From IMG/VR virus record IMGVR_UViG_3300032243_000020, positions 1-32,164 of that record: a stretch of DNA of 32,164 nucleotides; one strand, 5' to 3'. Source of the stretch: a virus. Taxonomy: Duplodnaviria; Caudoviricetes. The notes beneath the pieces are model-generated. The model did not search any database and was not told the DNA's origin. It saw nothing but the letters and a program-made list of their open reading frames with translations. Within the stretch, counting starts at the first letter, position 1. Each line of letters begins with the position of its first letter. This document shows positions 9,905 to 29,385 of this stretch, piece by piece. A program made the position numbers and the translations under genes.

Positions 9905-12283
9905 TTATTTTAAATAGTCAGCGGCTTTTAAGCCAGGATATTTTGTTTCAAATTGTTTTGCTAAAGTAGGATCTTTCTTTAAAGCATCAATAGCAGCTTG
10001 TGGTACTCCACCTGTTGGCGCTGTTTCTTGTTTTGGTATAAGCCCCGCAGCTTCCCTATACTCGTTAATTTTAGTTTCCCGCATTTTTTTAGCTCTTGCT
10101 TGATCCTCGGGATTTTTACTGCCAAGAAGTTCCATATACTTAAGCCCTTCTGCCCCACTATTTAAAGCAGTATCCGCTTTACTTATTGCCTCAAGATCCA
10201 ATCTTGATCTTTCAATACCAAGTTTTTCGTCTTTATTCATAGCATTTTTTTCTAAATAAGCATATGCAGCTGCTGGTGTCATATTGTTTTCTTTAGCATA
10301 CTGCAAAATCATATTTTGCCCAAATATTTCTTTAACCCTAGATGCAGCTGCGTTAATTTGAGCAGTTTGAAGATGCGTTTTGTTAGTTGCAGCATTGTTT
10401 CTTTCGCTTGACTCATTATTCATCTTAGTTGTTGTAAGTTGATTAGCCAATGTAGCGTTTTTATCCATTGCTTCTGCTTTAGCTTTAGCTGCATTAGCAT
10501 AGTGTGTTTGAGCTGCAGTCATATCGCCTCTAGCTTCAGCACGCTGACCTTTTTGCATTTCAGCAGCTTCTTTAGCTAGGCTAACATCTAAGTCTTCATA
10601 AGTTTTTTGAATTTCAGCTTGACCTGTCATATAGTTTTTACCGCCCTGTATAGCACCAGCTGCAATTCCACCAGGGGTACTAGCAAAATCTAACCATGCT
10701 TTAGCTTCATTCATTTTTTCTGCTCGGCGTTGTTTATCTGCTAACCCAGCACTACGTTCTTTGTTTTTGTTTTGATATGCTATTTCTTCAGGAGAAAGGT
10801 TTTTCTGTGTATTAGCTAATGCAGATCCGAGTAACGCTTGTTGTGTTGCCATAGCTTCTTCAGGCGTTGAATATCCTTTAGCTCTTTCTTCTGCAGCTGC
10901 TATTAATCCATACGGGTCTTCTTTAACTTCAGTACCTGCAGCAAACCGAGGGATAATTCCACCTTCAGCCATGTTCATGCCTAAGTCACCAGTATTGCCA
11001 GCGGCAACGCCAGACATGTTTTGCCCCATTTGATCTTCAGCTTGTCTACTTGCAATCATCTGCTTAATGCCCGGACTCTGTGTTTGTTGCATCAGTTTAG
11101 GTAATTCTTTTTGGCTTGGTGATGCATACGCATCTGATTGTGCAATGTCATCAATCTTATCCTCGAGCCCAACTAATACGCCTGATTTGTATCCGGGAAT
11201 AACATCTGCAATACCGCCCTTAGCCATAGCCTTAATCGTGCCACCTTCTTTTTTGCCTGTGTATGCGTTGTATGCACCGAGTAACCCAGCAGCTTGTTGC
11301 GCAACCGGTGCTTGAGCCTGGTATGATTGGACGGCTGTAGACTGCATAGGCAAACCACGTAACATATTAGACATTAAACCTAATTGCATCATTGGGTACT
11401 GCTGAGCCGTACCGTAGTCTTGAACGGCTTGGTTAATCTTGCTTTGTTCTAAAGCCTGCTGCTGACCCCCCATCTGGTTCTGCATATTAATAATGCCTTG
11501 TTGAGCCCCAAGTTCTTGCCCACCAATACCAGCTAATGCGTTAGCACCTTGAATACCTGCTTGAGCGCCTTGCAATCCTAGCTGAGCCCCGGTATTCATT
11601 TGATTTTGTGCGTTATTAAATGCAGTGTTGTAACCTTGACCAATTGCTTGGTTCATTGCCATATTCTTGTTGCGTTGATTTTCAGCCGCCATAATAGCGT
11701 CTCTACTACCACCAAACGCACCGGCTTGTGTAGCTTGCCCAGCTTGTTGGGCTCCAGTAATACCATACTGGCGTTGCATTTCTTCTAACTGCGGCTGTAA
11801 ACTATTTTGTAAGTATGGGTTCATATAGGCACCAACCGCATTAGGGTTAGTTGCCATGTTTTGGAAGTTCCGTCCTGCGCCCAACGCCTGCATTGTACCT
11901 AGACCAGCCGCTCCTGTAGCCGCTCCATATTGCCCCGGAGTTTCAAGATTAGCTGCACCAGATTGTGCTTGTTGTTGCATTGGGCTAAACCCCGCATAAT
12001 AATCAGACGGGTTAGAACTATAAGGCGTATAAGGTTTAAATCCAGTTATTTCTGTATTGCCATCTGCCCCAGGAGCAGTATTAAATAATTGGTTTTGTGT
12101 AGCGTTAAGCATGTTTTGTACATAAGGCTTAGCGTACTCAGGTACATTCGTTTGATATGATGTAGCCGTTGTTGGAGCCGGTGTTCCACCTTTACCCCCA
12201 CCTTCTAAGGTCGCCGGCGCATTGCTAAATAGCTTTTTTGTAAACGCCCGTTCAGGCAACATTGACTCTAAATCGTATCTCAT
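9905..12283 (-). CDS. Internal virion / DNA ejection protein (P22 gp7-like N-half joined to a helical C-half)
   Basis: 792 aa. Leader followed by GGGKGG, Gln/Gly/Ala-rich region with AGAFGGSR, charged helical C-half. Sits between the GNAT gene and the giant protein. Confidence 0.7.
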   Translation of the reverse strand: MRYDLESMLPERAFTKKLFSNAPATLEGGGKGGTPAPTTATSYQTNVPEYAKPYVQNMLNATQNQLFNTAPGADGNTEITGFKPYTPYSSNPSDYYAGFSPMQQQAQSGAANLETPGQYGAATGAAGLGTMQALGAGRNFQNMATNPNAVGAYMNPYLQNSLQPQLEEMQRQYGITGAQQAGQATQAGAFGGSRDAIMAAENQRNKNMAMNQAIGQGYNTAFNNAQNQMNTGAQLGLQGAQAGIQGANALAGIGGQELGAQQGIINMQNQMGGQQQALEQSKINQAVQDYGTAQQYPMMQLGLMSNMLRGLPMQSTAVQSYQAQAPVAQQAAGLLGAYNAYTGKKEGGTIKAMAKGGIADVIPGYKSGVLVGLEDKIDDIAQSDAYASPSQKELPKLMQQTQSPGIKQMIASRQAEDQMGQNMSGVAAGNTGDLGMNMAEGGIIPRFAAGTEVKEDPYGLIAAAEERAKGYSTPEEAMATQQALLGSALANTQKNLSPEEIAYQNKNKERSAGLADKQRRAEKMNEAKAWLDFASTPGGIAAGAIQGGKNYMTGQAEIQKTYEDLDVSLAKEAAEMQKGQRAEARGDMTAAQTHYANAAKAKAEAMDKNATLANQLTTTKMNNESSERNNAATNKTHLQTAQINAAASRVKEIFGQNMILQYAKENNMTPAAAYAYLEKNAMNKDEKLGIERSRLDLEAISKADTALNSGAEGLKYMELLGSKNPEDQARAKKMRETKINEYREAAGLIPKQETAPTGGVPQAAIDALKKDPTLAKQFETKYPGLKAADYLK

Positions 12284-12711
12284 TTTTTAAACTCCCTAAT
12301 CCATCTACAATCGGCTTTATCCATATGTAGGACTACTAAATCGCCGTCATCTTCATGCATACCGTTAAACCTTAAAGCTTCTTTAAAACCAAGCTTTTGA
12401 TCGTACTCCATAGCTTTAATATTCTTACTATTTACTATGCCGAATACTTTTTCTAAACCGCAATAGTTAAATGGAAAATCAAACGCACTAAACAATAACG
12501 CTCTAGGGGTATACCCCCCTTTAAGATTAACCATGTGTATTTGACATGTCTTACCTATAAACGCTGTGTAGCCAACAACCCATTCAATTTTATTATTTGC
12601 ATCGACCCAAAACAACGCTTGTAAATCACCACAAGGTTGAACACCAATCTCTTTAAGCAAAATATTAGCCGCAACTTGTTTAGCGTCTAATGATTGCGCA
12701 AACTGTAACAT
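12280..12711 (-). CDS. GNAT-fold acetyltransferase-like protein (positional equivalent of P22 gp14 / T7 gp13)
   Basis: 143 aa. FDFPFNYCGLEKVFGIVNSKNIKAMEYDQKLGFKE matches the RimJ/RimL-like GNAT C-terminal motif (N..A....KLGF..E). Lies immediately upstream of the ejection protein. Confidence 0.8.
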   Translation of the reverse strand: MLQFAQSLDAKQVAANILLKEIGVQPCGDLQALFWVDANNKIEWVVGYTAFIGKTCQIHMVNLKGGYTPRALLFSAFDFPFNYCGLEKVFGIVNSKNIKAMEYDQKLGFKEALRFNGMHEDDGDLVVLHMDKADCRWIREFKK

Positions 12712-14265
12712 TTAGGTAGGTAAAAACTTATTAGGGTTGATTTGTTTACCCTGCGCTTTACGACCAGTTCTTGCTTTACGAATCTTATCCATCATGCTAT
12801 ATAGTTTTTTAGCACCAGCTTCAGTCGAACCATTACCTAAATGACTAACTACATCAGCTGGCACCACAAATTCGCCGTCGGCTAAACGTGCAGGTTGATG
12901 CTTTCCAATCTGTGCAGGTATATTGTCGCTCATCCCATCGCCGGGCCCCTTAAGCAAGCGTCCACCATCTGAATAAGAACCTAGTGTTGCAATACCACCT
13001 GATGCTCCAGTATCAGAAAAGTCACCACCTAGTTTTTCTATTCCTGTCTTAGGTAAGTTACCTGTTTTAACATTCGATCTTTTTGCTATCTGCTTGTACC
13101 CAGCTTGAGCTGCGTTCCAACTTGGTAAGCCTTTAGTTGTTAAATTAGTATCGTGGTAAATGCCCGTGTCAGGAATACCCGCAGATGAAGATAGGTGCCC
13201 ACCAGAAGCCATTTTCATAGACCCAGTATATGTATCAGTCATTGTATCGGTAGGCGAAATTATGCTACTACTAGTTGGAATACTTGTTGCGCTTTGAAAT
13301 TGATTATACCCAGACGCATTGTTTAGTCCAGATTGTTGAAATGAAGAGTTGTTATTAGCAGCGTTCTCGTTAGACATTTGCTCAACTGGGCCTTGTGTAC
13401 TAGGATCGGCTAACCCACCCTCTGCCATTGTTTTTGGCGCATATGGATTTTGAGAGTAGTCTTGGTACTGTGCTTTATAGTATGGGTTTGGCTGTTCCGG
13501 AACATACCCTTTAAAGTCTTTTGACAACCTAGCAAACCCCATTGGGTTACTGTCGGTAGACCCTAGTTGAGGTACACCTTGTTGTGGTGTTAAAGCATTA
13601 GCAATACTGTAACCAGCAGCAGGTAATGTTCCTTGTGGCATTGCAGCCATAGCTGCACTACGTCCTTGAGAATTACCAAGTTCGCTTAAACCCCGTTGAG
13701 CATTGGAAAAAGATGGCTCAGTAACCGCTGCTGTTCTAGCTGTTGCATTACCACCTTCTTCAATTGCTTGTTGCTTAATTGCGTCTAAAGCTGTTTGATC
13801 TGTTATGCCTTGTGTAGCAGCTTGTTGTGCAGCTTGTTGACCAGCAGTATCTGCTGCTGTTTGTGCTGCGGTTTGAGTTGCTGTATCTGCTACTGCGCTT
13901 GCGCCTGCCCCAGCTAGTCCCACCCCTAGTCCTGCACCGCCGTAAGCCCCAAGTCCCGCCATTAAACCTGCGTTTAAATCATGTTTAGCTACACCATAGC
14001 CAAGCCCAGTAATACCTGCGGCCATTAACGGAGATAACGCCCCACCCGTAGCAATAGTTAAACCAGCTCCAATAACCATAGGTAAAATAGAATCAAGGAA
14101 CCCGGCTTCGGGTAAACCTGTATGAGGATTGATAGTTAGAGAACCACCATGCGCCTTAGCTACTTGTTGAAGCCCACGCAATTCATTGGATGACATGTGC
14201 ACAAGCTGGTCATCTGGACCACGCCCATGTTGTTTTAAGTATTCTGCCGTATGCGACAAACTCAT
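12712..14265 (-). CDS. Probable internal virion / ejection protein with membrane-type Gly/Ala segment and C-terminal GPGDGMSD...LADGEFV domain
   Basis: 517 aa, RBS GAGAGG. N-domain GRGPDDQLVHM...TINPHTGLPEA, hydrophobic residues ~55-125, C-domain GPGDGMSDNIPA..RLADGEFVVPADVVSHLGNGS. Confidence 0.65.
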   Translation of the reverse strand: MSLSHTAEYLKQHGRGPDDQLVHMSSNELRGLQQVAKAHGGSLTINPHTGLPEAGFLDSILPMVIGAGLTIATGGALSPLMAAGITGLGYGVAKHDLNAGLMAGLGAYGGAGLGVGLAGAGASAVADTATQTAAQTAADTAGQQAAQQAATQGITDQTALDAIKQQAIEEGGNATARTAAVTEPSFSNAQRGLSELGNSQGRSAAMAAMPQGTLPAAGYSIANALTPQQGVPQLGSTDSNPMGFARLSKDFKGYVPEQPNPYYKAQYQDYSQNPYAPKTMAEGGLADPSTQGPVEQMSNENAANNNSSFQQSGLNNASGYNQFQSATSIPTSSSIISPTDTMTDTYTGSMKMASGGHLSSSAGIPDTGIYHDTNLTTKGLPSWNAAQAGYKQIAKRSNVKTGNLPKTGIEKLGGDFSDTGASGGIATLGSYSDGGRLLKGPGDGMSDNIPAQIGKHQPARLADGEFVVPADVVSHLGNGSTEAGAKKLYSMMDKIRKARTGRKAQGKQINPNKFLPT

Positions 14266-14271
14266 ATCATA

Positions 14272-14298
14272 CCTCTCTTAATTTACCATATATTAACA
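14272..14298 (-). promoter_or_regulatory. Possible extended -10 promoter and RBS for the ejection-protein genes
   Basis: The 59 nt AT-rich gap (14266-14324) is the largest in the operon. The minus strand reads TGnTAATAT (14298-14290) and GAGAGG (14277-14272). No good -35 element. Confidence 0.4.
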
Positions 14299-14324
14299 TT
14301 TAAACTGTTGTTCCACTAGCATTT

Positions 14325-15638
14325 TTACCCTATTTGTACCCAAGCATAAGCATTGGAAGAGTTTTTAAGACACACATAAAGATGGTTTGCAACCCCGCTA
14401 CCATTTTGCAAGGTTAACATATTTCCTTCATATACTGCACTAGCTGTTGGTAATGAAGCTACTAAGTTTGAACCTAAATTTGATACTTTTGTAATAGTTC
14501 CACAATTAATAAATTTAAAACTTGCCAATAATGTTGCACTTACATACTGCTCAAGCAAATACGTTGGAGTTGTATTTTGATAATAATTACATATAACACC
14601 ACTTGCACTTGTATCAAAAATTAATGTGTAGTAAGGAGCAGTTGTGCTTAAATTAGTAATATTTACATCAGACAAATTAATGTTTGCACTACCTAAATTA
14701 ATTCCATAATTGCATTTAGAAGTTTCTACATCTATTAAAGTAATATTTTGTGCATTTAAAATAGCATTAAATTTCAAAGCAGTTGTTGTAATAGGTGAAC
14801 TTGCGTTTATAGTTTCTATTACAAAACCATTAACTAAACCAAAAGGATCGCTAATAAAACATACACCATCAGTAGTAATGTTTGTATAAACACTTCCAGC
14901 CTGAGACATATAAATTGCCCAAGCAGTATTTGTTATTCCTGTTGCTTCGCAATGATCAAACTCGTTGTATGCACCACCATTTGAATAAAATCCATATTGA
15001 GTTACATTTCCTGTTACTAAAATATTAACAAACCTATTACTATAAACAGTATTTCCAGCTCCAGAATTTATGTAAACACCAGAAGTAGCATCTTGAATCC
15101 AAATATTTTCAAAAACCATTCTTGTAATTGGATAAATCGCAGTTGATACTAATTGAATACCCTTACAAGTGCTATTGCAATTTATTTTAAGATTGAATAT
15201 TCCACCACCTAAAATTACAAAAGCAGTTGAATCAACATTAAACGCCGGTACCTCAGTAACAGAAACTAAATTAATAATAGTTGTAGAAAATGATTGACCA
15301 ATTATAGAAATTGCTTTTGTTATGCTTAATGATGACGTTATCTTAAAAGTTCCTACAGGAAAATAAACTGTAGCAGATGTTCCATTCGTTAAAGTTTGAG
15401 CATAATTAATTGCCGCTTGAATAGCCGCTGTATCATCAGTAACACCGTCACCTTTAGCCCCATAATTTTTAACTGAAATTATTCCTAAATTATTTTGATT
15501 TTGCAATATCCCAAAGATTGCATTATCCACAGTATTAAAATACAACCCCAATACTTGCTCGAGCTGATCCATAAATAGCTTGTTGTATTCAAGCGGTGGG
15601 GCTGGTAGCCTTGGATTTTTAGTATTTATAATTGTCAT
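14325..15638 (-). CDS. Tail spike/needle with pectate-lyase-like right-handed beta-helix (probable polysaccharide-binding or depolymerase)
   Basis: 437 aa. SVKNYGAKGDGVTDDTAAIQAAIN and VYFPVGTFKI (Pectate_lyase_3-type N-cap), Asn/Ile-rich beta-helix, N-terminal PRLPAPPLEY anchor. Directly follows the nozzle gene. Confidence 0.8.
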   Translation of the reverse strand: MTIINTKNPRLPAPPLEYNKLFMDQLEQVLGLYFNTVDNAIFGILQNQNNLGIISVKNYGAKGDGVTDDTAAIQAAINYAQTLTNGTSATVYFPVGTFKITSSLSITKAISIIGQSFSTTIINLVSVTEVPAFNVDSTAFVILGGGIFNLKINCNSTCKGIQLVSTAIYPITRMVFENIWIQDATSGVYINSGAGNTVYSNRFVNILVTGNVTQYGFYSNGGAYNEFDHCEATGITNTAWAIYMSQAGSVYTNITTDGVCFISDPFGLVNGFVIETINASSPITTTALKFNAILNAQNITLIDVETSKCNYGINLGSANINLSDVNITNLSTTAPYYTLIFDTSASGVICNYYQNTTPTYLLEQYVSATLLASFKFINCGTITKVSNLGSNLVASLPTASAVYEGNMLTLQNGSGVANHLYVCLKNSSNAYAWVQIG

Positions 15639-17836
15639 TATCGTTTACCGTCAGGTCTAACTTCCATCCTAGGAACACCTAGCTGCCACTGCGTTCCTAC
15701 ATCGTTTGAAGTTACTAAAAATGACATTTGGCGCCCACGAATCCTGCAGTACGCATATTGAGTAAATTGCTGAACATCGTACGTACTTTGCCCTACATAG
15801 TTTTGTCCACTAGTCACAACCGGTAAATCAGCTGAGCCATAAAGAGCCCCTGGATTTTGCCTAGGGAGTGCAGTAAAAGTAACTTTTGGGTTGTTAACAG
15901 TAGACCCGTTAAAGCTAATATCAGGAATAATTCTCCATACAAACCCAAAGTTATGCCCATCGCCAATGTCAAAATCAGACGATTGAATAAACGCATCTAA
16001 CGCAACCGGTGGATTTGCTGTGCCGTTGTCGACACCGCTTTCATGGTAAATAATCCCTGATTGAACTACACCAATATCCGTTACTGTTACACCTGTAGGA
16101 TGAACTGAAGCTGTTGTGCCATACGCACCTCTTGAGCATCCTGTTAAGGTCGTACTTGTAGACCCAGTATAAATAATACGCTCGGCTTCAATCTCCACTA
16201 CACCAGCCGTAGGAAAGTCTCCTTTGCTTGCTATATTAATTGTAGAATCTGTTAGCCCAATTGCTTGTGTAACTGTTGTAACAGGTGCATATCCTGCTGA
16301 TGTTGGAAAGCCTCTAAGTGGTGTGTCAGACCAAGCCGTTCTAGTTAAATTACCGTAATACCAAGTTTGTTCTAAATGATTATAAATTACATACTTATCA
16401 ATCACGCTTGAGTTTGCTGAACAATAAAACCACCAAATCTCGCTAAATCCTTCGTTAATGCCCGAAAAAAATTGGTAAGATTGACTTTGATTAATGTCTT
16501 GAAATACATATTCTCTTAACGTACATGGTAGTGTTTGAACTTGTCCAGAGTACATAAAAAATTTATCTTTGCCCATCCAGTAAGTAACGTTGTTAACCGC
16601 CGCTGCAACGTTAGGGCCCATAATTGAAATGTTGTCACCAAGAATATTAAAACCCCATACATACGGTGCGCCTAAGTATTGCATAGAATATATTGCAATA
16701 TCAGTAAATACTACAATTTCTTGTCTAGTTTGCACCGCCGATATAATCTGTGAGCCACGGCTTAATGTATAGCTACCTGCTTGGTTAGTTATAGCAGGGT
16801 ACCATGTAGTAATATTTTGTTGATCCGACCAACTAATTAACATTGGATTTTGAACCCCATTACCTAGTGTATCTGTACCAAATGCAATAACAAACCGACT
16901 AGCATCTGAAACCATAACAAAATTACAAATAGTAGGGCATGCAGCTGTACCAGCATCTGTTCTCCAATACGCAACAGTATTTTGAGTGTTTGTATTAGTT
17001 GGAGATAAAACTTGTCCTACGTTATATACGTTAGGGTTTGTATCTACAACCCAGTAATAAATAGGCCCACCACGAGGGTTAAATACTAAATTTTGCCCGT
17101 AGTTTGCTTGGCTCCACAAACGCAACTGAGACCCAATACCCAACCCAGCGGGAGCGGAAATACCCCATCCTGTATTAGAATACCCGGTATTAACTCCACC
17201 CCATCCCCCAGCACCCCATCCAGCATTTTGTGTGTAAAATGCACTACCTGTTGTAATTTGATATGTCGCAATTGTAGAACCGCCACCATTTCCAGTATCG
17301 CTTGAATTGGCTGTAACTGAAACTGTAATTGAATACTGTGTTCCAGAAATGTATGTAATTTGATACCCTTGAGCCTGATTTAAAATTGCCGCAGTAACAT
17401 TACCACCTAGCGATGTGGCACTTGTAAATGTTACAAAGTCCCCAGATTGCGCACCATGTCCAGTTTGAGTAACAGTAATGACAGAAAAACCATTGACCGC
17501 TGCAAATGTTGCTGCACCAGCTGAAGATACAACACGGATAGGTGTAACATCATAAATAACTCCTCCGGTACCTTGCTGAATATAAAACTTTTGGTTAGTA
17601 CCAATACCTAAAAAGTTATACCCGTTAAGCGCTATCCAATTTTTTAATGACCTAGCAACACCAACATATGCATTACCTGTACTTACTGTGCCACTATCTA
17701 GTGTCCACCCACCAAGTTTTTCTACTTGCCCAGAACGAAACCTAATTTTGTCGCAAGCATACCAGCCACCCTCATTAGCAAGGGTAGTACCTTCTCTATT
17801 TACGCCCGGTCTAAATTGTAGTTTCTGTAATGACAT
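15638..17836 (-). CDS. Tail nozzle / packaged-DNA stabilization protein (P22 gp10 / T7 gp12-like)
   Basis: 732 aa. Start FRPGVNRE..GGWYACDKIRFR, beta-propeller-like segments (ISWSDQ, TYWMGKDKFFMYSG, FSEIWWFY), end RIRGRQMSF...WQLGVPRMEVRPDGKR. Gene position fits. Confidence 0.75.
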   Translation of the reverse strand: MSLQKLQFRPGVNREGTTLANEGGWYACDKIRFRSGQVEKLGGWTLDSGTVSTGNAYVGVARSLKNWIALNGYNFLGIGTNQKFYIQQGTGGVIYDVTPIRVVSSAGAATFAAVNGFSVITVTQTGHGAQSGDFVTFTSATSLGGNVTAAILNQAQGYQITYISGTQYSITVSVTANSSDTGNGGGSTIATYQITTGSAFYTQNAGWGAGGWGGVNTGYSNTGWGISAPAGLGIGSQLRLWSQANYGQNLVFNPRGGPIYYWVVDTNPNVYNVGQVLSPTNTNTQNTVAYWRTDAGTAACPTICNFVMVSDASRFVIAFGTDTLGNGVQNPMLISWSDQQNITTWYPAITNQAGSYTLSRGSQIISAVQTRQEIVVFTDIAIYSMQYLGAPYVWGFNILGDNISIMGPNVAAAVNNVTYWMGKDKFFMYSGQVQTLPCTLREYVFQDINQSQSYQFFSGINEGFSEIWWFYCSANSSVIDKYVIYNHLEQTWYYGNLTRTAWSDTPLRGFPTSAGYAPVTTVTQAIGLTDSTINIASKGDFPTAGVVEIEAERIIYTGSTSTTLTGCSRGAYGTTASVHPTGVTVTDIGVVQSGIIYHESGVDNGTANPPVALDAFIQSSDFDIGDGHNFGFVWRIIPDISFNGSTVNNPKVTFTALPRQNPGALYGSADLPVVTSGQNYVGQSTYDVQQFTQYAYCRIRGRQMSFLVTSNDVGTQWQLGVPRMEVRPDGKR

Positions 17837-17837
17837 A

Positions 17838-19648: not shown

Positions 19649-19656
19649 AAATAACC

Positions 19657-20691: not shown

Positions 20692-20700
20692 TTTTTATCC

Positions 20701-23301
20701 TTATTGACTATTATTTATAGGTGACCATACTGTAGATACGTTATTGTTTATTGGGCTCCAAGTTACAGATTGGTTATTGTTAATAGTCACCCACCCGCTT
20801 GTAGTATTAATATCCGATAATACCAAATTTTCAACAATATTAACAGCATAATCTATTCCTGTAACACCGATACGTATATCAAATACAGAAATATTTTCTG
20901 TTACAGATGCAGTATAAGATGCACTAGTCGATGCAGTTGCGATATCAGCTAAACTAATGTTTTCAACTACATTCTGTGAAGAACCAGCGCTAATAGTTTG
21001 AGAATTAGCAGGGGCAAAGTTTTCAACAGGGCTAATCTTATACGCAGAAACTATTATTTGACTATCTGCTAACCCAGTATTTTCATTTACAGGAATACTA
21101 AAAACAGACGCAATAATTTGAGAATCAGCGGAACCAAAATTTTCAGTAACACTTGCAGTAAAGTAACCGCCAGCATATGCATTTGAAGTTTCAGCCGCCC
21201 CAATATTCTCTACTACTGCACCAGAATAAGTGACATTAATAGTTTGAGAATTGGCAGAACCAATATTTTCAGTTACAGAACCTGAGTATGTAACATTTAT
21301 TGTTTGACTATCAGCAGAACCTAGGTTTTCAGTTACAGAACCTGAGTATGTAACATTTATTGTTTGACTATCTGCAGAACCAATATTTTCTGTTGTAGAA
21401 CGTGAATAAGTAGATGTAACAGTTTGAGAATCTGCTAGACCTGTGTTTTCAGTTATAGAACCTGAGTATGTAACATTTATTGTTTGAGAATCAGCGGAAC
21501 CTATGTTTTCTACTACTGCACTAGAATAAGTAACATTAATAGTTTGAGAGTCAGCGGAACCAATATTTTCAGTTACAGAACTTAGATATGCTGGGCTAAT
21601 AGTTTGACTATCTGCTAAACCGGTGTTTTCAGTTACGGCGCCAGAATACGTTACACTAACAATTTGACTATCTGTTGAGCCAACGTTTTCAGACGCAAAC
21701 CGTGAAGAACCGGCACTTATTGTTTGAGAATCAGCAGAACCTATGTTTTCAGTTACAGAAATTCCATAAGTAGCTCCAATAGTCTGACTGTCCGCTACAC
21801 CAACATTTTCAGTTACAGCGCCAGAATTAGCCGAATTATTAACCGCAGTTGCGGTATCATCTAAACCAATGTTTTCAGCTCTACTAACTGAATAAGTTGT
21901 AATAACAGTTTGACTATCAGCTGAATTAATATTTTCCGCAATTGAAATACTAAAAACAGATGCGATAGTTTGAATATCTGCCGAACCAATATTTTCAGTT
22001 ACAGGAAGGGAATAAGCACTATTATTATACCCACTACCCCAAGTATCACGGCTCCAAGGCCCAGACCCCCAGCCATTATTAAGCCCACTAGTATTGGTAT
22101 CCGCTAACCCAATATTTTCAGTTACTGAAGCAGTATAAGAACCTGTAGTTGATGCAGTTGCAGAATCAGCAGAACCAATGTTTTCAACTACAGAACCTGA
22201 GTATGTAATGCTTACTGTTTGGGAATCTGCTAGACCGGTGTTTTCTGTTACAGACCGTGAAGAACCTGTACTTACTGTCTGAGAATCAGCAGAACCAATA
22301 TTTTCAGTTACAGAACCTGAGTATGTAACGCTTACTGTTTGAGAATCAGCAGAGCCAATGTTTTCAGTTACGGTGCCAGTATAAGCACCGCCGCCTGTGG
22401 TGTAAGTGAAGATAATAAGACCTGCACCACCAGCACCTGATGTTGAGCCTGATCCACCACCGCCACCATATGCCCCGCCAGCGCCCGCTGTTGCGCCAAA
22501 CCATGCGCCACCACCGCCACCACCAGGACCTGCTGTTCCACCAGCAGTTGCAGTATAGATATTTCCTGCGCCACCATTACCACCTGTTCCTGGAGAACCA
22601 TATCCTGAGCCACCACCGCCCCCTGCTGTACCTGCACCACCACCACTTGACCCGTTTATACCAGCAGTACCCGCACCCGCCCCACTACCGTTATTACCGC
22701 CAGCAGCACCAGCACTAGCAGTACCAGCCGCCCCAGCATTTCCAGCACCTGCTATTGTGGCTGCCCCACCGCCCCCACCGCCCCCACCGTTGTTTGAACT
22801 TACTGCACCGCCTGCTCCACCAACACCACCAGGACCTGCCGCAGCACCACCCCCAGGGTAACACCCAGTAACAGGACCAATGTTAGCACCGCCATTACCA
22901 CCTGAAAAATTTGTAGTACCTACACCAGATGCGGATGCTCCACCAATACCACCTGTAGAACCTGTAGATGTTGAACCACCTTTTGCAAAAGCACCATCAG
23001 TTGATGCTCCCGGTGGAAGAGTAGCCCCTGATACAGCGTTAAACCATGTATCACCGCCTGAAACAGTAGCACTACCCCCCGCTCCAATGTTAACCTTAAC
23101 AGTATTATTGGCTGCAAGATTACTAGCAGTTATAGATGTAGTTTTAGCATACGCACCGCCACCGCCGCCACCGTTATAACTTGACCCTGCACCGCCGCCG
23201 CCCGCACCACCTCCGATACACTCTACGGATACTAAAGAACTAAAGTCCGATGGTATTGTATAAGAAGTGCCCGAAGTGATGAATACGACTTTAGTTGCCA
23301 T
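20701..23301 (-). CDS. Fibre/whisker-like structural protein: N-terminal glycine-rich adhesin-like domain plus ~25 x 20-aa repeats
   Basis: 866 aa. VFITSGTSYTIP..VECIGGGAGGGG...GAGGAGLIIFTY Gly-rich domain, repeats SVTENIGSADSQTINVTYS, C-terminal W-x-x-I-N-N triplet. Confidence 0.75.
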   Translation of the reverse strand: MATKVVFITSGTSYTIPSDFSSLVSVECIGGGAGGGGAGSSYNGGGGGGAYAKTTSITASNLAANNTVKVNIGAGGSATVSGGDTWFNAVSGATLPPGASTDGAFAKGGSTSTGSTGGIGGASASGVGTTNFSGGNGGANIGPVTGCYPGGGAAAGPGGVGGAGGAVSSNNGGGGGGGGAATIAGAGNAGAAGTASAGAAGGNNGSGAGAGTAGINGSSGGGAGTAGGGGGSGYGSPGTGGNGGAGNIYTATAGGTAGPGGGGGGAWFGATAGAGGAYGGGGGSGSTSGAGGAGLIIFTYTTGGGAYTGTVTENIGSADSQTVSVTYSGSVTENIGSADSQTVSTGSSRSVTENTGLADSQTVSITYSGSVVENIGSADSATASTTGSYTASVTENIGLADTNTSGLNNGWGSGPWSRDTWGSGYNNSAYSLPVTENIGSADIQTIASVFSISIAENINSADSQTVITTYSVSRAENIGLDDTATAVNNSANSGAVTENVGVADSQTIGATYGISVTENIGSADSQTISAGSSRFASENVGSTDSQIVSVTYSGAVTENTGLADSQTISPAYLSSVTENIGSADSQTINVTYSSAVVENIGSADSQTINVTYSGSITENTGLADSQTVTSTYSRSTTENIGSADSQTINVTYSGSVTENLGSADSQTINVTYSGSVTENIGSANSQTINVTYSGAVVENIGAAETSNAYAGGYFTASVTENFGSADSQIIASVFSIPVNENTGLADSQIIVSAYKISPVENFAPANSQTISAGSSQNVVENISLADIATASTSASYTASVTENISVFDIRIGVTGIDYAVNIVENLVLSDINTTSGWVTINNNQSVTWSPINNNVSTVWSPINNSQ
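20800..22380 (-). repeat. Degenerate 60 bp tandem coding repeat (~25 units)
   Basis: Recurrent plus-strand unit such as gtttgagaatcagcagaaccaatattttcagttacagaacctgagtatgtaac. The 60 bp period is visible in lines 21241-21600. Confidence 0.9.
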
Positions 23302-23304
23302 TAT

Positions 23305-23517
23305 TTACTCTGGGATTTGTGGTGTAGGAGGCAACGGTTCAGGAGGGTTTGGATTAATAAAATTTACACCATTCCAAAAATACCCCGGACCTGCGTAGTT
23401 TCCGTCCGCATCGGGGTATTCTATAAGGTACATGCCCTCTGGGGCGGGGTCAGTAGGTTCACATACAATGATGTTAACTACTAACCCTGTAGAATCGACA
23501 ACTGCACAGGTAGTCAT
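23305..23517 (-). CDS. Small protein, probable chaperone/partner of the Gly-rich adhesin domain
   Basis: 70 aa. CAVVDSTGLVVNIIV...AGPGYFWNGVNFINP pattern, which is commonly adjacent to Gly-rich fibre genes. RBS GAGGG. Confidence 0.6.
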   Translation of the reverse strand: MTTCAVVDSTGLVVNIIVCEPTDPAPEGMYLIEYPDADGNYAGPGYFWNGVNFINPNPPEPLPPTPQIPE

Positions 23518-23535
23518 TTGCCGCCCTCATAAAGA

Positions 23536-24147
23536 TTAACTTGTTGCGGTTGTAGAGTATGTAACAGTTAATGTATCGCCTGAAACAACAGCTTTTGAAC
23601 CGCCTGAGAAGTTACCTTCAGAATATAATGTACCACTTGTTGAACTTTGTGTATTTACTGCACCTGAACCAGTAACTAAGAAACAACCATAAACTGTACC
23701 ACCAGCACCTGTAATTGTGTAGACAATTGCCGTAGCAGCAGAAGTTGTTACGTTAGATGGAGTTGATCCTGATGATGTAGACACCGCAAATGATGCTGTA
23801 CCACGAACTGCTGAACCACCAACTGTATAGTTAATAAACTCACCAGCATTGGTAGTAACTAAAGTAGTCATTGTGTCAGTTGCTACAGGTGTTAAACTTA
23901 CCTTGGTCAAGCCTAAAAACGGACCAACAACGCTATATGCAGAGCCTCTTAATAAAGTATCTAATAGCAACTGTTTTCCAATTGCTACAACTAAATTTGG
24001 AACTTCATCTTCCCATTTAAAATTACCATCTTTGTCATGGCAAATAACGTTATACACGCCTTCCATACCAAATGGCTCACCTGATTTTTGATTGCGGGAT
24101 ACAGTTACTACTGCGTTGTCACCAAAACCTGCTAATTCGTTACTCAT
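23536..24147 (-). CDS. Virion structural protein (fibre base/adaptor-like)
   Basis: 203 aa. G.Y.V.C.DKDG..KWED...NLVV..GK..LL start and GDTLTVTYS end, Thr/Ser-rich beta protein. RBS AGGAG. Confidence 0.65.
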   Translation of the reverse strand: MSNELAGFGDNAVVTVSRNQKSGEPFGMEGVYNVICHDKDGNFKWEDEVPNLVVAIGKQLLLDTLLRGSAYSVVGPFLGLTKVSLTPVATDTMTTLVTTNAGEFINYTVGGSAVRGTASFAVSTSSGSTPSNVTTSAATAIVYTITGAGGTVYGCFLVTGSGAVNTQSSTSGTLYSEGNFSGGSKAVVSGDTLTVTYSTTATS

Positions 24148-24155
24148 AATTACTC

Positions 24156-24581
24156 CTAAGAAATTGTTATTACTGCTGTCGTTGAACTAGCAGTGGGAAA
24201 TGTTACTGTAAAAGTTTTACCGCTTGTTACATCATTACCAAAATTTAACACAAAACACGCCGCATTTGTAGTGCCATTATAGATTAAAGCACCTCTTGCG
24301 GTAAGGGCTGAAGTCCATGTAACGTTATTAAAAGACAACCATGCTATGTTATTTAATGTATCGGCTGTTGGGCGGTTACTAATTGTTAATGCTTGCCCAC
24401 CTGCGGTATAACCACTTGCAACAACTTCATTCGTTAAAGTGTAAATCGTAGTTGTATTATTTAAGTTAGCATTGGCGGTATACAACGCAATTTTGTAAGT
24501 ATAGGGGGTACCAACAGCAAAGTTTTCTAAACCACTTAGCAGATTAACTTTAAATTGTGTTGTTTGCCCTTGGGTTATCAT
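24156..24581 (-). CDS. Virion structural protein (head/tail fibre base-like)
   Basis: 141 aa. FKVNLL, YKIALYT, NEV..SGYTAGG..LT, TARGALIYN and VLNFG.D....FTVTFP motifs typical of this phage structural family. Confidence 0.7.
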   Translation of the reverse strand: MITQGQTTQFKVNLLSGLENFAVGTPYTYKIALYTANANLNNTTTIYTLTNEVVASGYTAGGQALTISNRPTADTLNNIAWLSFNNVTWTSALTARGALIYNGTTNAACFVLNFGNDVTSGKTFTVTFPTASSTTAVITIS

Positions 24582-25306
24582 GTAACGGTGTTACCTTTAA
24601 TATTTGCATTAAGCTTAGTCTGCCCATCTCGATACGCATCGCCTCGTTCTAGAGCATTACATAATCTGATTAACTCGCCCATTGCTTCATCATACTTAGC
24701 TTTATACATAGTAATCATATCTACTTCAACTTTCATGTATATCGCAGCTTCTAATAAAGCGCCGTATAAAAGTATTGGGTCGTAGTTATTCCCAAGCCAA
24801 GACTCGCTTGCTGTTGTAATGGATTCTGGGTAATAAAAATAGTGCATCTCAACTAAGTAATTAGCATCAGGCGTCGGCCCTAAAATACAAGACAAAGACT
24901 TAGGATAGCTTAATTGCGAGCCAAATAAAGAGTAATATTTAGGCGTACCTGTTGCTGTTGGTGTTGGGTATGCTTCACGAATAAAGTTAACATCTTTGTT
25001 AAGTAGGTATGTAAAAGGAGTTGCATAGTCTGCAGTATAAATAGCAATAGAATAAGCAGCTAACCAATCAGACGGTAAAGATAAATACTGATTACCGCTG
25101 GTCAATGTTCCTGTTACATTCTTTCTTAGCGTTGGGATGTTTACTGTGTTGTAAATCCGTGTTTCCGCTTGTGTAATAAATGTATTAACTTGTGTAGCAC
25201 TAGTAGTTGTTACAGCCGTAGTTCCATCCGTCCCAGTAAAGGTAGTAGATGGAAACTCGTTTTCACAGTAGTTTTTTACTGTCTGAAACAACGTAGTGTA
25301 GTTCAC
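24578..25306 (-). CDS. Head-tail adaptor / tail tubular protein A-like
   Basis: 242 aa. MNY..L...VK.Y.EN, FI.QAE.RI, LPSDW, GTPKYY, LGPTPDANY.VE.HY and LLYGALLEA..YMK motifs of podoviral adaptors. Confidence 0.8.
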   Translation of the reverse strand: MNYTTLFQTVKNYCENEFPSTTFTGTDGTTAVTTTSATQVNTFITQAETRIYNTVNIPTLRKNVTGTLTSGNQYLSLPSDWLAAYSIAIYTADYATPFTYLLNKDVNFIREAYPTPTATGTPKYYSLFGSQLSYPKSLSCILGPTPDANYLVEMHYFYYPESITTASESWLGNNYDPILLYGALLEAAIYMKVEVDMITMYKAKYDEAMGELIRLCNALERGDAYRDGQTKLNANIKGNTVT

Positions 25307-25581
25307 GCCATTGGTCCTCTAGACATACGACCTTTAGTAGCAGCTCCCGCACCACGCATTTCAATACCTGATGTTTTAGGTTCTTTAGACACGCCGTAAC
25401 TAACACCATTTCTAACGGGGTCTTTTAAATCAGCATCTTTAGCCGATTTTTCGTAGGCGTACGTTCTTGAGTCTACTTTCTCTTGCCCTGTAATTTTTTT
25501 ACCATCCATTGTATGTGGCTCTGCATAGACAGCAGCGCTGCCTGTCTCTTTGCCCATAGTTTTGCTAGAATATTTAGCCAT
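25303..25581 (-). CDS. Small basic hypothetical protein
   Basis: 92 aa, Lys-rich, ends GIEMRGAGAATKGRMSRGPMA. Coupled to neighbours by overlapping start/stop codons. Confidence 0.75.
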   Translation of the reverse strand: MAKYSSKTMGKETGSAAVYAEPHTMDGKKITGQEKVDSRTYAYEKSAKDADLKDPVRNGVSYGVSKEPKTSGIEMRGAGAATKGRMSRGPMA

Positions 25582-25763
25582 TATTTGCCCCTCTGGTTAT
25601 TAGCCCGTGCAATGTTTCTGCCAACGGCTTTATAAGCAGCGTTTAACCCACCACCTTTTTTAGCCTTTGCGTTATTTATTACTTTAGGCCCGTCAGTAGG
25701 AAAAACTTGTGCGTCAGTTTTACCTTTTTTAACTACACCATCAGCACCTGATTTATATCCCAT
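25581..25763 (-). CDS. Small basic hypothetical protein
   Basis: 60 aa. YKSGADGVVKKGKT...GRNIARANNQ. RBS AGGAG upstream. Confidence 0.7.
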   Translation of the reverse strand: MGYKSGADGVVKKGKTDAQVFPTDGPKVINNAKAKKGGGLNAAYKAVGRNIARANNQRGK

Positions 25764-25772
25764 TTTAAACTC

Positions 25773-26201
25773 CTAAGTTGTACTTACTGTTACGCTATTA
25801 ATTCTACCAATTGCAACTAAATAATTTGGGGTTAATACCCTATCAAATCCACTAGCCCCACCTACAGGATACCAACCCCATTGAATTTGCCTACTACCAT
25901 CAGATGGGTACCCGCTTTGGTTTATACTTGTTCCGTTACCATTTAAAATCTGTAACCCGGTTAGTCCAGAACCGTAATAACTATTATCCGGTCTTGGTTC
26001 ACGTACAGCCTGTGGGTCATTTACAGGGTACATACCTAATTGTAACTGAGGTTGATCTGGTTCCCAACACTCTCTACATACTTTAATGCTAACCTGTTTA
26101 GTCTTAATTGTTAACTTTTTTAAATCTTTAAGCTTATAACGTTGCCCACACCGATCACATTCGGCAATCGAGTGTTTACCGGAAGCAAAATTACTAGGCA
26201 T
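25773..26201 (-). CDS. Zn-ribbon (CxxC...CxxC) virion-operon protein
   Basis: 142 aa. ECDRCG and VCRECWEPDQPQL, then DPQAVREPRPD. Confidence 0.75.
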   Translation of the reverse strand: MPSNFASGKHSIAECDRCGQRYKLKDLKKLTIKTKQVSIKVCRECWEPDQPQLQLGMYPVNDPQAVREPRPDNSYYGSGLTGLQILNGNGTSINQSGYPSDGSRQIQWGWYPVGGASGFDRVLTPNYLVAIGRINSVTVSTT

Positions 26202-26203
26202 GA

Positions 26204-27157
26204 TTATCTCGAGTAAAACAAATTACGTGGAACAAATCTAATTGGCGCTTTTTCTCTATCTTCATCAGCTGCTAATTGGAATTGTTTATCGTATTCTTGT
26301 TGTAAATACATAATTCTGTTTGGGTCTACGCCTTGAATTTTAATGCTTAACATGGCTGATAGCCCCGCCACAAAACAATTAATAAATCTAAACGGAATAT
26401 CTTGGACATTGACACCATTTCCTGCGTCTTGAAGCCTACGCATGCGCCAGTACACAAGTGTGTAAGGCCCGCCACCACCATCAGGTGTAGGCCAAATGTT
26501 TAAGCAAGGAAGGTATTGCACAGTAATTGCATCATTTGTTGCATGGGTAGCCGCTACAGTATTGTTCTGACCTCTCCAACAGTTTTGCAGTTGGTTTCCT
26601 ACAATGTTAGTGTAGGTAATAGTCTCTGTACCAATCTGAATAAACCCTGTTGAGCGCAGATTTAAATTAGTAATATTTGCGTTAGTTGCAGTTTTTAAAG
26701 TAATCGTTGTATCCGTTGCGTTAATACTAGACGACAGCAAGTATTCCGATAAATTACTATTGCCTGACTGCCTATTAACATAAACTTGTATTGGCCTACC
26801 CGGGGTTAACTTGTTGGGTATAGTAGCATAAGTAGACTCAGATATGCGGTTAAGATTGAGGTCGGTTTGATTAGAAACGTTTGCATTATTAGTACGAGTC
26901 TCGAGGTCAAGTACATCTATCGTATCCACAGGAATTGCGTATATACCTAGATTAGTAGTCAGCTGAATACTTACCTCTTCAACAGTCCAAAGGTTGATGC
27001 CTCTGTTTACCCAATCAGTTGTCATCAAGTTAATAGACCTACGCGCAGTGCGCAAGTCATATCCGGAACGTACCTGTGAACCACAGCGTTCAAACGCTTC
27101 CTCGACCATCTCGGTGAGGTCTAGGTTAAATGTACTAATTCCGGATGTTGATGCCAT
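26204..27157 (-). CDS. Second adaptor / neck ring-like protein with inserted beta domain
   Basis: 317 aa. EEAFERCG..YDLRTARRSINL..W.NRGINLW, Y.TIPNK...GRP.Q, IWPTPD and DIPFRF..C.VAGL motifs. Confidence 0.75.
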   Translation of the reverse strand: MASTSGISTFNLDLTEMVEEAFERCGSQVRSGYDLRTARRSINLMTTDWVNRGINLWTVEEVSIQLTTNLGIYAIPVDTIDVLDLETRTNNANVSNQTDLNLNRISESTYATIPNKLTPGRPIQVYVNRQSGNSNLSEYLLSSSINATDTTITLKTATNANITNLNLRSTGFIQIGTETITYTNIVGNQLQNCWRGQNNTVAATHATNDAITVQYLPCLNIWPTPDGGGGPYTLVYWRMRRLQDAGNGVNVQDIPFRFINCFVAGLSAMLSIKIQGVDPNRIMYLQQEYDKQFQLAADEDREKAPIRFVPRNLFYSR

Positions 27158-27480
27158 TATTTAGCAGACTTTTTTGTTGTAGGTTTAGCAACTTCTTGTA
27201 CAGCCGGCTCAACAACCTCTTCTACAACCGGCTCAACAACCTTTTCTACAACCGGCTCAACAACCTTTTCTACAACCGGCTCAACAATCTCTTCTACAAC
27301 CGGCTCAACAACCTCTTCTACAACCGGCTCTATAGGGGTTAAGTATTTTTCTAACATTTCAGCAATTTCTTTTGTTTGTTCATTTGCTGCGCCAAATGCT
27401 TGTTCTTCTTGGTGTACTACACGTTTAAACATGTTTAACATATGTTCTGCGTGTTTTTCTAAATCTTGAAATAAACTCAT
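27157..27480 (-). CDS. Acidic hypothetical protein with (EPVVE[EK]VV)n repeat
   Basis: 107 aa, RBS AGGAG, coupled to both neighbours. Confidence 0.75.
   Translation of the reverse strand: MSLFQDLEKHAEHMLNMFKRVVHQEEQAFGAANEQTKEIAEMLEKYLTPIEPVVEEVVEPVVEEIVEPVVEKVVEPVVEKVVEPVVEEVVEPAVQEVAKPTTKKSAK
27187..27330. repeat. 24 bp tandem repeat, ~6 units
   Basis: ccggctc recurs at 27204, 27228, 27252, 27276, 27300 and 27324. Unit ctacaaccggctcaacaacct(c/t)tt. Confidence 0.95.
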
Positions 27481-27728
27481 TTAATACTCCTGTATGTTTT
27501 AACTTTATTTTTAATACTTTTTGGTTGTGCTACAAATTGTTTACCTTTTGCTTTGCCTTCACGTTTAGCTTTAGTAGTTGCAGCATATTCTTGAGGGCTT
27601 AATGCTTTTATTGCTTTTTCTGGTAAATACCGTTCTCCAGTTTCGGAGGATTTTTTACCCGATTTTGTAGTCCACTTTTGATCTCCCCAAGCTTTCAAAG
27701 ACTTCTGAGATTTTGCTAGACCACTCAT
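27477..27728 (-). CDS. Small basic protein (DUF5872-like, C-terminal half)
   Basis: 83 aa. QKSLKAW..QKWTTKSG..SSETGERYLP.KAI..LS..EY..TT.AKR....GKQFV.QP. Family name recalled from memory. Confidence 0.65.
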   Translation of the reverse strand: MSGLAKSQKSLKAWGDQKWTTKSGKKSSETGERYLPEKAIKALSPQEYAATTKAKREGKAKGKQFVAQPKSIKNKVKTYRSIK

Positions 27729-28000
27729 TTATACCCACCACCAGATGCTTTATACTTTTTTGCTACTAACTGTGCTTTACGTGCTGACCACTGCCCTGCA
27801 CCTGTACCTTGCACTGCCGCTGCTTTTACTTGCGATACAATACGTTTTCTAAGGCTAGGTTTAGTGTAGTTACCAGCGGCGTTAACTTTTCCACCTTTAG
27901 CATACATCTCTACATCTTGCGGCTTGTCTTTCCGCTTAATGATTTTTTTACCTGGCATTTTAGATGGGTTAATATCTCCCATACCACGTGAGGCTTTCAC
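27725..28000 (-). CDS. Small basic protein (SRGMG N-part plus YTKP...GQWSARKAQ domain)
   Basis: 91 aa, GTG start. NYTKPSLRKRI...GQWSARKAQLVAKKYKASGGGY. Confidence 0.7.
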   Translation of the reverse strand: MKASRGMGDINPSKMPGKKIIKRKDKPQDVEMYAKGGKVNAAGNYTKPSLRKRIVSQVKAAAVQGTGAGQWSARKAQLVAKKYKASGGGYK

Positions 28001-28296
28001 TTTTTAGCTTTCATCATACCGCCACCGCACATAACTATAGTACCTTTGGTTTTACCTTTTGTGCAGCAACCATCAGCACGAGAAGAAGCCGAACCACCTT
28101 TAGCCATTTTTTTAGGTGGCTCTGTAGTTTCTTTAGGTGGTTTTTCTTTTTCTTTTTCTTTTGCTCTACGTATTTTAGACTCTTCACGAGTTTCACCACC
28201 AAGTTCTTCATTGATGACTTCAACCGGATTAGCTAATCCTAAAGTATCAAAATAGTTAGTAGCCTTGTCGTTGTACTTTTTAATCATTTCTTTCAT
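27997..28296 (-). CDS. Small basic hypothetical protein ending MAKGG..SSRADGC..KGKTKG
   Basis: Start reassigned from 28479 to ATG 28296: AAGGA lies 7 nt upstream and the reassignment removes the overlap with the next gene. 99 aa. Confidence 0.7.
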   Translation of the reverse strand: MKEMIKKYNDKATNYFDTLGLANPVEVINEELGGETREESKIRRAKEKEKEKPPKETTEPPKKMAKGGSASSRADGCCTKGKTKGTIVMCGGGMMKAKK

Positions 28297-28306
28297 TTGA
28301 ATATCC

Positions 28307-28828
28307 TTAGCACATTTTGCCTTTAGTTTTGCCACGTTGAGCGCAACCATCCGCACGAGAAGAAACTGAACCACCAGCTTTGTAAGACCTATTTGGAGAT
28401 TTAGTAGTAGTTTTTTGCGCTTTAGCTTTACCTGAAGGACCTGCCTTAGCTTCTTTTTGAGTAGGAAAGTTGCTTTCAAACGGCTCTACTGCTCTACGAT
28501 AAGCTTCCGCAGACATTTTTGTATCTTCTTTATCAGCTTTAGGTGCTGGTTTAGATTCAGCTTTAGGTGCAGAAGTTTCAGTTTTAGGCGCTGGTTTAGC
28601 TGCTGGTTTAACTTCAGAAGCTAACTTAGTACCGTAAGATTTGCCTTTCCATGTAAATGTAGAATCACCCGCAGCTCTTGCAGATTTAAACGCATCACCA
28701 AAAGAGTTAGAATCTAGCCCTGCTTGTTTTTGTTCGGGCGTTACCGTTCCACGATCACTTTCGTCTTCGATAACTGATTCGCCATCTTCACCACTATAGC
28801 GTTTAACTTTTTTCATTGGGCGTTTCAT
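28307..28828 (-). CDS. Hypothetical protein with F..AF..AR..G...FTW.GK.Y.T motif, PAK-rich linker and YKAGG..SSRADGCAQRGKTKG tail
   Basis: 173 aa, RBS AAGGAAG, coupled to the upstream gene. Confidence 0.75.
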   Translation of the reverse strand: MKRPMKKVKRYSGEDGESVIEDESDRGTVTPEQKQAGLDSNSFGDAFKSARAAGDSTFTWKGKSYGTKLASEVKPAAKPAPKTETSAPKAESKPAPKADKEDTKMSAEAYRRAVEPFESNFPTQKEAKAGPSGKAKAQKTTTKSPNRSYKAGGSVSSRADGCAQRGKTKGKMC

Positions 28829-29385
28829 ATTGTTCTTCCTTTCATTTTAGGCATCATACCTTGAGTTTTACCTTTAGAAGCAACACCGTTAGCTTTAGAT
28901 AATTGGCTAGTTTTACCGCCCATAGCCATTTTCTTCATAGCCATACCGCCTTTTTTAAGCTTAGCTAAATCAGTACCTTTGCCGCCTTTATGTTCTTGCT
29001 TGTCATGCATGCTAAAAGCTTTTTTAATCATGGCTTTGTCTTGGGCTTTGTCCATCTTTGTATCTTCTTTAGCCATACCGCCTTTAGCCATTTTTTTCAT
29101 TGCAACTCCACCACGTTTCATACCGCCCATACCCCCCATAGGAGCTGGAGCTGCTGCGGCAGCTGGAGGCATTGCAGGTTGTCTAGCAGACATTAACGCT
29201 GCCATCATCTTTGGGTCCATTTTTTTCTTAGTAGCCATCTCTCCACCTTTTTTGAATGTTTTGCCTTTATCGGCATCATTAAAATCTTTCCCCACAGATT
29301 GAGGAACTCCTACCTTCTTAGCAAAAGCTGGGTTATGAGCTATCGCCGCCATAAAATTATGTTGCTTTTTACTTGTGCTCGGCAT
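28825..29385 (-). CDS. Lys/Met/Gly-rich basic hypothetical protein
   Basis: Likely start is ATG 29385 (MPSTSKKQHNFMAA), 186 aa. Contains five [MFL][AK]xGG motifs. Confidence 0.75.
   Translation of the reverse strand: MPSTSKKQHNFMAAIAHNPAFAKKVGVPQSVGKDFNDADKGKTFKKGGEMATKKKMDPKMMAALMSARQPAMPPAAAAAPAPMGGMGGMKRGGVAMKKMAKGGMAKEDTKMDKAQDKAMIKKAFSMHDKQEHKGGKGTDLAKLKKGGMAMKKMAMGGKTSQLSKANGVASKGKTQGMMPKMKGRTI

Follow-up and report, generated by a model that had tools for sequence, protein, structure and literature searches.

The prohead proteases gp21 of T4, gp175 of phiKZ and gp245 of SPN3US are specific for sites after Glu, and the gene slot behind the portal is the usual place of such an enzyme. 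T4 internal proteins are brought into the capsid by a capsid-targeting sequence, a single N-terminal tag per loaded protein. Here we describe a short motif, [MYFL][AKS].GG with the fuller consensus K-[MYF]-[AK]-[KES]-G-G-x-[VATI], which recurs in six proteins encoded by a 32,164-base stretch of viral DNA (IMG/VR record IMGVR_UViG_3300032243_000020; hereafter the window), together with a small Asp/Glu module that ends one of these proteins. The window is the whole record and represents the late-gene half of a short-tailed phage genome. The closest described systems are processed tape measures. Lambda gpH is converted to gpH* and gpHC, the latter of ~14 kDa, and the available text of a 2025 paper states that site and enzyme are unknown (PMC12617516). 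T5 pb2 is converted to pb2* and pb2C by a cut placed after R1127 by intact mass (Linares et al., PMC10038345, available part), and for the JBD30 tape measure a cut at R1066 was proposed from prediction alone, no peptidase motif being found according to the available part of PMC11445458. Furthermore, P22 gp7 has its leader trimmed by host OpdA (PMC8402733), and in the available part of PMC10172136 the crAss001 cargo protein gp45 (C1) accounts for a portal-wing-bound density (residues 425-552) and a tail-bound helix (residues 214-245).

The motif is a real, conserved junction code. Among the 30 minus-strand genes of the window the pattern matches 16 times, where 1000 per-protein shuffles averaged 3.4 matches and never exceeded 10, and 13 of the 16 matches fall in proteins of 792, 517, 91, 99, 173 and 186 aa (Table 1). 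These are the 13 copies of the initial annotation: minus-strand translation of the eight for which it gave single coordinates yields the claimed pentapeptides, and each of the five in the 186-aa protein, given there as one span, was located. All copies are internal, the earliest at residue 33, and different copies are encoded by differing synonymous codons. In per-protein shuffles the 517-aa (p 0.006) and 186-aa (0/5000) proteins stand out clearly, and the 91-, 99-, 173- and 792-aa proteins, taken singly, are borderline (p 0.04-0.05). The three matches elsewhere are FAKGG in the N-terminal part (36% Gly) of an 866-aa fibre, YSNGG in a 437-aa tail protein and LAIGG in the last, open-ended gene. 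Gly-rich fibre matches, like a conserved FRxGG at the terminase end, were taken as chance.

A set of 151 IMG/VR loci was compared, 71 retrieved with the 517-aa protein (L001-L071) and 80 with an adaptor. Over non-redundant members the carrier families are enriched in the motif 3.5- to 27-fold relative to shuffled sequences (observed/shuffled: 517-aa, 139/17.7; 792-aa, 121/34.5; 186-aa, 233/10.3; 91-aa, 57/2.1; 99- and 173-aa together, 78/4.3), while the adaptors (0/2.4 and 5/6.3), nozzle (3/12.6), capsid (0/1.1), portal (0/0.7) and scaffold (0/0.1) are at or below chance, as the initial annotation had judged by eye for adaptors and nozzle. No copy occurs in 21 capsid, 14 scaffold and 13 portal sequences, and the giant ejection-type protein has 3 against 10.7 expected in 21 relatives. 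With a slightly wider pattern, four near-complete relatives gave 49 observed against 5.7 expected for carriers, whose families are partly defined by the motif itself in this comparison, 6 against 9.6 for other virion proteins and 10 against 8.5 for the remainder. Positions are conserved in homologues as well, for example in 41/41 for the copy of the 91-aa protein and in 59/60 aligned for the last copy of the 186-aa protein. The initial annotation had taken all six carriers to be virion-internal, which was not confirmed as such: a family match places only the 792-aa protein (PHROG 4287), and the 517-aa protein is placed by gene position. Entry of the four small proteins into the virion is suggested by their position, by their basic net charge (+8 to +28) and by the fusion of pieces of them to PHROG-labelled structural proteins.

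The motif appears where modules are joined. GG is found in the tail of 0/107 517-type proteins that end with the module, and at the would-be stop of 26/27 that are extended past it, usually as two or three motifs in tandem; the single exception resembles a frameshift. In a quick tree of 120 modules the extended forms fall into two groups, well-supported branches force at least two changes, and the motif is present in 19/19 extended forms versus 0/101 others. Likewise, the gp7-like body of the 792-aa protein is a separate gene of 280-360 aa in many relatives, and the motifs of the 792-aa protein lie at its join with the second module. Residues 34-91 of the 91-aa protein match a stand-alone 63-aa family (PHROG 17747, E 1.7e-22) starting at residue 34, the Ala of the motif. 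In the 186-aa protein, residues 1-42 (29260-29385, minus strand) share 79-81% identity with phiKZ gp165.1, a stand-alone protein, the alignment reaching only as far as the first motif. An identity of ~80% is unusually close for unrelated phages. Several long relatives with N-terminal extensions contain no copy, and therefore the motif is not used at every fusion.

The C-terminal module of the 517-aa protein has only two invariant columns, Asp447 (12925-12927) and Glu465 (12871-12873), both retained in 99/99 rows. No Pfam or NCBIfam family matched residues 431-517, and a profile of the module recovers 35,120 cluster representatives (50% identity clusters) at E<=0.001. In the PDB sequence set it finds the tape measures of Douge (E 3.4e-16) and JBD30 (E 1.4e-7), and lambda gpH scores 13.9 bits, a weak match, against 2.6 for the best reversed control. 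Of 21 PHROG families matched, 17 are named tape measure and one endolysin, the rest being unnamed. Judged by these profiles, the module is homologous to tape-measure modules, those of Douge and JBD30 and, weakly, that of lambda. The best 150 proteins of the search yielded a library of 408 module copies. GG lies upstream of the Glu in 404/408, a count inflated in part because the profile includes GG, and in 311/408 the module opens with the motif, at a fixed 22 residues from the Glu; a second motif closes 283/408. Ala follows the putative cut in 333/404, and the residue preceding the cut varies (F, Y, K, L, R, A), which fits a site read on its downstream side. The window module is opened by YSDGG and is protein-terminal, and the closing copy is present in 26/27 extended relatives. 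Two AlphaFold2 models of the module (mean pLDDT 68 and 74, pTM 0.47 and 0.54) show two helices and a hairpin, the N-terminal half being poorly defined. With these moderate-confidence models Foldseek found no PDB match at E<=0.001, and the best VIA-align Z scores were 2.5 and 2.6; a viral structure library returned unnamed phage relatives. Stand-alone module genes were sought through short matches, of which there were 2301, those listed being mostly on short contigs and probably fragments. Two giant proteins of ~7,800 aa (P0258 and P0302) hold 11 and 9 module copies.

The same register is found in tape measures that are cut or proposed to be cut. Residues 1128-1131 of T5 pb2 are AEGG, directly after the reported cut at R1127. 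Lambda gpH (J02459) carries F733-ATGG, RGEFV and Y778-ATGG, just as the initial annotation had stated, and a cut at F733↓A734 (the arrow marks the putative bond) would give 79.8 and 12.5 kDa, near the ~14 kDa of gpHC. In JBD30, F↓ASGG and H↓ATGG flank the module. In crAss001 gp45, A-x-G-G sites occur at 207, 261, 330, 425, 560 and 826. A425 is the Ala of N↓AFGG, so that the resolved gp45 domain starts on the Ala of the site; the next motif is F↓A560YGG, and the piece 214-245 lies between the motifs at 207 and 261. Its family, crAss_CARG1 (PF25725), has 135 A-x-G-G sites in 36 homologues versus 39.6 expected. In this gp45 resembles the carriers of the window as a cargo protein whose resolved pieces are bounded by A-x-G-G sites, although the available text of PMC10172136 reports neither the motif nor cleavage of gp45. 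The gene (L254:19988-22516) also encodes small basic cassettes between A-x-G-G sites, one of which, on visual inspection, looks like small genes that stand alone in the window's relatives. Profile links of the module to CARG1 and to T5 pb2C were not significant; crAss_CARG1 is the nearest named Atlas cluster to the module (score 0.83, a lead only), and the reverse Atlas search returned unnamed clusters only.

The motif is likely, though by no means assured, to be a maturation cut site x↓A-x-G-G in ejection and small basic late proteins. We infer both the cutting and its position because of the reported products of T5 pb2, the resolved pieces of crAss001 gp45 and the sizes of lambda gpH. The bond just before Ala or Lys (x↓A-x-G-G-x-V/I) would be cut while the head assembles, which would trim off leaders and separate fused modules. 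Predicted products are 37.1, 8.9 and 38.3 kDa from the 792-aa protein, 28.3, 7.5, 7.9 and 9.1 kDa from the 517-aa protein, and, from the small proteins, mostly basic peptides of 1-6 kDa and one piece of 16 kDa. More speculatively, and with rather low probability, the cutter is the Asp/Glu module, the best candidate, which might process its opening motif in cis and, as an oligomer, other copies in trans. It is a tentative and equally doubtful extension of this that the module founds a new miniature self-processing peptidase family maturing lambda gpH and related tape measures at their own x↓A-x-G-G, of which many podoviruses would redeploy one copy per genome, sometimes in the prohead-protease slot, on ejection and basic core polyproteins.

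The system would work like tape-measure maturation in T5 and lambda, with x↓A-x-G-G followed ~20 residues on by a G-E/E-V element, yet it is no tape measure. Here the motif is spread across six separate proteins of a short-tailed phage that lacks a tape measure; the body of the 517-aa protein has no tape-measure match, and the window encodes SU10-type adaptors, a nozzle-type protein and ejection proteins. Like prohead-protease systems, it uses one short code on many internal proteins, and the module gene stands behind the portal in HTVC103P, HMO-2011 and CRP-1. Unlike them, it gave no match to a protease family of this kind when two complete relatives were scanned, its capsid, scaffold and portal are without the motif, and the conserved residues follow the putative cut rather than precede it, so that it does not class with prohead-protease systems in the classical sense. 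The 792-aa protein is gp7-like and has LEGGGKGG at residue 26 (12185-12208, minus strand) after a 25-residue leader, similar to EKGGKGG of P22 and the OpdA-trimmed leader of P22 gp7. In contrast, P22 trimming takes place at a single N-terminal site of other sequence, and the P22 ejection proteins contain no copy of the motif.

Several points weigh against cleavage. Cutting, in this phage or in any relative, is deduced rather than observed, and a domain can begin at the motif without being cut; the authors of the crAss001 structure treat gp45 as one uncut continuous chain in the available part of PMC10172136. The T5 site is disputed: an older study gave V1148 +/-1, and trypsin, too, cleaves at R1127 (PMC11937520, available part). 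Copies repeated at 8-9 residues (100/481 spacings) would suit binding or a structural repeat equally. Of the copies in the 517-aa protein, the two in linkers are conserved in under half of the aligned relatives, many podophage modules open with FPRRxG in place of AxGG, and Caulobacter phage RW has a module with clear copies absent from its other proteins. The module is small, ~50 residues in tape measures, and shows no significant similarity to CARG1 or T5 pb2C profiles (CARG1 hhalign 0.1-0.5%; no Pfam match), so that they share only the x↓A-x-G-G register and, by eye, the later GE/EV element. With the moderate-confidence models no significant fold link to CARG1 emerged, gp45 chain 7qog_M not being among the structures listed. 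The relatives also share ancestry, so that the counts are not independent, and L001-L071 were selected via the 517-aa protein itself.

Cleavage could also be the work of another enzyme, whether a peptidase of the host or a phage protein not recognised as one, with the module serving only as a binding or oligomer domain. The trimming of P22 gp7 by OpdA offers a precedent (PMC8402733), the module is small with no protease-like fold seen, and the residue before the site varies between phage groups. On the other hand, the downstream signature is constant across hosts from several phyla, the Asp and Glu of the module are invariant, and the module co-occurs with the motif. We consider this version, which takes its share of the probability allowed to cleavage, possible.

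Less probable is that the motif is an uncut docking tag which binds the module, portal or scaffold and so loads or orders prohead cargo, tandem copies giving avidity. The 8-9 residue period, the five copies in one 186-aa protein, the module gene adjoining the portal gene in three podophages, and the portal-wing binding of the crAss001 domain whose first residues are the motif (PMC10172136, available part) would all suit it. However, tape measures, located in tails, carry the motif as well, and its gain at fusion joints is not needed for loading because the fused protein already has copies. The giant ejection protein, which needs loading, is without it. Unlike the T4 capsid-targeting sequence, the copies here are internal. 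The initial annotation had proposed one recognition code, read either by a phage protease or for loading cargo into the prohead. A shared protein-level code is borne out by enrichment, positions, fusion joints and lambda gpH. T5 pb2 and crAss001 gp45 lend outside support to cleavage, whereas the case for loading suffers from the absence of the motif in the largest ejection protein.

It is improbable that the motif acts as a joint in the structure, either a short strand with a tight turn or an unfolding hinge, which mobile cassettes take along and which no partner cuts or reads. Its place as the first module element at a fixed distance from the Glu would agree with such a joint, as would the largely low-complexity nature of the carriers and the unfolding needed for ejection, but tiny basic proteins that are unrelated, and linkers distant from any module, show the same sequence preference, plain Gly-rich linkers suffice for flexibility, and T5 is reportedly cut there. 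An origin by chance in Lys/Met/Gly-rich sequence, or as a DNA repeat, is refuted despite the four proteins that are borderline singly and the three matches outside the carriers: joint and family-level shuffles and positional conservation rule out composition, and the varying synonymous codons show that the motif is protein-level and not a repeat of the DNA.

Exactly one module is present in each of 5/5 relatives that are at least 90% complete; overall 12/21 records matched, the misses all being at most 55% complete. MinM2 and DSL-LC04 have it in the same arrangement as the window, whereas in the cultured marine podophages HTVC103P, HMO-2011 and CRP-1 its gene lies after the portal and before scaffold and coat; HTVC103P and HMO-2011 have the motif in further late proteins too. 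These post-portal genes (L316:6136-7431 in HTVC103P, L317:13998-16286 in HMO-2011 and L318:9757-11904 in CRP-1) are all annotated hypothetical. Relatives of the window have a small gene between portal and scaffold (L301:12528-12938 and equivalents), and the gene in this slot of Caulobacter phage RW is annotated GroES-like. Neither module nor motif excess was found in the structural regions of T7, P22, SU10 and Bcep22. No known maturation protease appeared in a Pfam scan of 117/125 open reading frames of at least 90 aa in the complete relatives G001 and G005, border-cut frames being not fully scanned, and the only peptidase-type matches were an M15 endolysin and a DUF2201_N putative metallopeptidase in the early region. 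In phiRIO-1, a protease-less podophage, no processing was seen (PMC4819975, available part).

If cleavage at the motif is true, cargo proteins would be cut in crAss001 and in many podoviruses, the latter usually taken to mature without proteolysis. F733↓A734 would be the exact candidate bond for lambda gpH maturation, and the Asp and Glu of the module the candidate catalytic pair, in a family of ~35,000 clusters (50% identity) without a Pfam entry. The question of how and where gpH is cut, open in the available text of PMC12617516, and the dispute over the T5 site give the motif wider relevance, and the predictions can be tested by standard methods in lambda, T5, crAss001 or HMO-2011. Full-text literature searches, whose coverage excluded most subscription papers, returned no description of motif or module among the papers listed, and the motif is not mentioned in the available parts of PMC10770324, PMC12724387, PMC11972413, an F-pyocin preprint (10.64898/2026.02.24.707460) and a phi24B preprint (10.64898/2026.04.10.717836).

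Table 1. Positions in the window of the motif-carrying proteins, their motif copies and neighbouring ejection genes
Feature	Position	Strand	Remarks
2843-aa giant ejection-type protein	1370..9901	-	LPD39 and internal GNAT domain (residues 975-1049); no motif, internal control
792-aa ejection protein	9905..12283	-	P22 gp7-like body (~residues 30-345) and second module; PHROG 4287 DNA ejection protein, E 4.6e-6
Variant FAAG, 792-aa protein	10934-10945	-	9 residues after M438-AEGG
Motif M438-AEGG, 792-aa protein	10958..10972	-	kept in 17/23 aligned relatives
Motif M353-AKGG, 792-aa protein	11213..11227	-	end of gp7-like body; kept in 23/28 aligned relatives
Variant K344-KEGG, 792-aa protein	11240-11254	-	9 residues before M353-AKGG
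GNAT-like helper, 143 aa	12280..12711	-	between 517- and 792-aa carriers; PHROG 4470; no motif
517-aa protein	12712..14265	-	three motifs; C-terminal Asp/Glu module
Unnamed module, residues 431-517 of 517-aa protein	12715..12975	-	GG..GPG..SD.IPA..L.DGEFV..A and two helices
Motif Y431-SDGG, 517-aa protein	12961..12975	-	opens the C-terminal module; kept in 33/35 relatives
Motif M352-ASGG, 517-aa protein	13198..13212	-	low-complexity linker; kept in 10/23 aligned relatives
Motif M280-AEGG, 517-aa protein	13414..13428	-	low-complexity linker; kept in 13/29 aligned relatives
91-aa basic protein	27725..28000	-	
Motif Y33-AKGG, 91-aa protein	27890-27904	-	
99-aa basic protein	27997..28296	-	
Motif M64-AKGG, 99-aa protein	28093-28107	-	followed by basic tail ADG..KGKTKG
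173-aa basic protein	28307..28828	-	
Motif Y149-KAGG, 173-aa protein	28370-28384	-	followed by same basic tail as in 99-aa protein
186-aa basic protein	28825..29385	-	five motifs (28915-29256): 28915-28929, 28945-28959, 29077-29091, 29107-29121, 29242-29256

The small basic genes, two SU10-type adaptors, fibres, lysis genes, the nozzle-type gene and the ejection cluster are all on the minus strand. The cluster runs in the order 517 aa, GNAT, 792 aa and 2843 aa, with the 517-aa gene first, and relatives with complete genomes are 60-65 kb. Among sequencing runs, no RNA data set was listed as a holder. The N-terminal 55 residues of the 517-aa protein (14100-14265, minus strand; GRGPD..LVH..INP.TGLPE) are conserved in relatives, with no PHROG family matched. 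A second basic motif, [AG][DN]GxAx[KR]GKT[KR] (27997-29385, minus strand), follows GG, mostly by 6-12 residues, in 80/152 related small proteins, and a 60-aa protein (25581-25763, minus strand) begins with a similar string. The open reading frame labelled as 623 aa (29831-32164, minus strand) runs open to the window end over 777 codons and matches structural PHROG 5838, and a 107-aa acidic protein (27157-27480, minus strand) has the tandem repeat VEPVVE[EK]V with an 8-residue unit.

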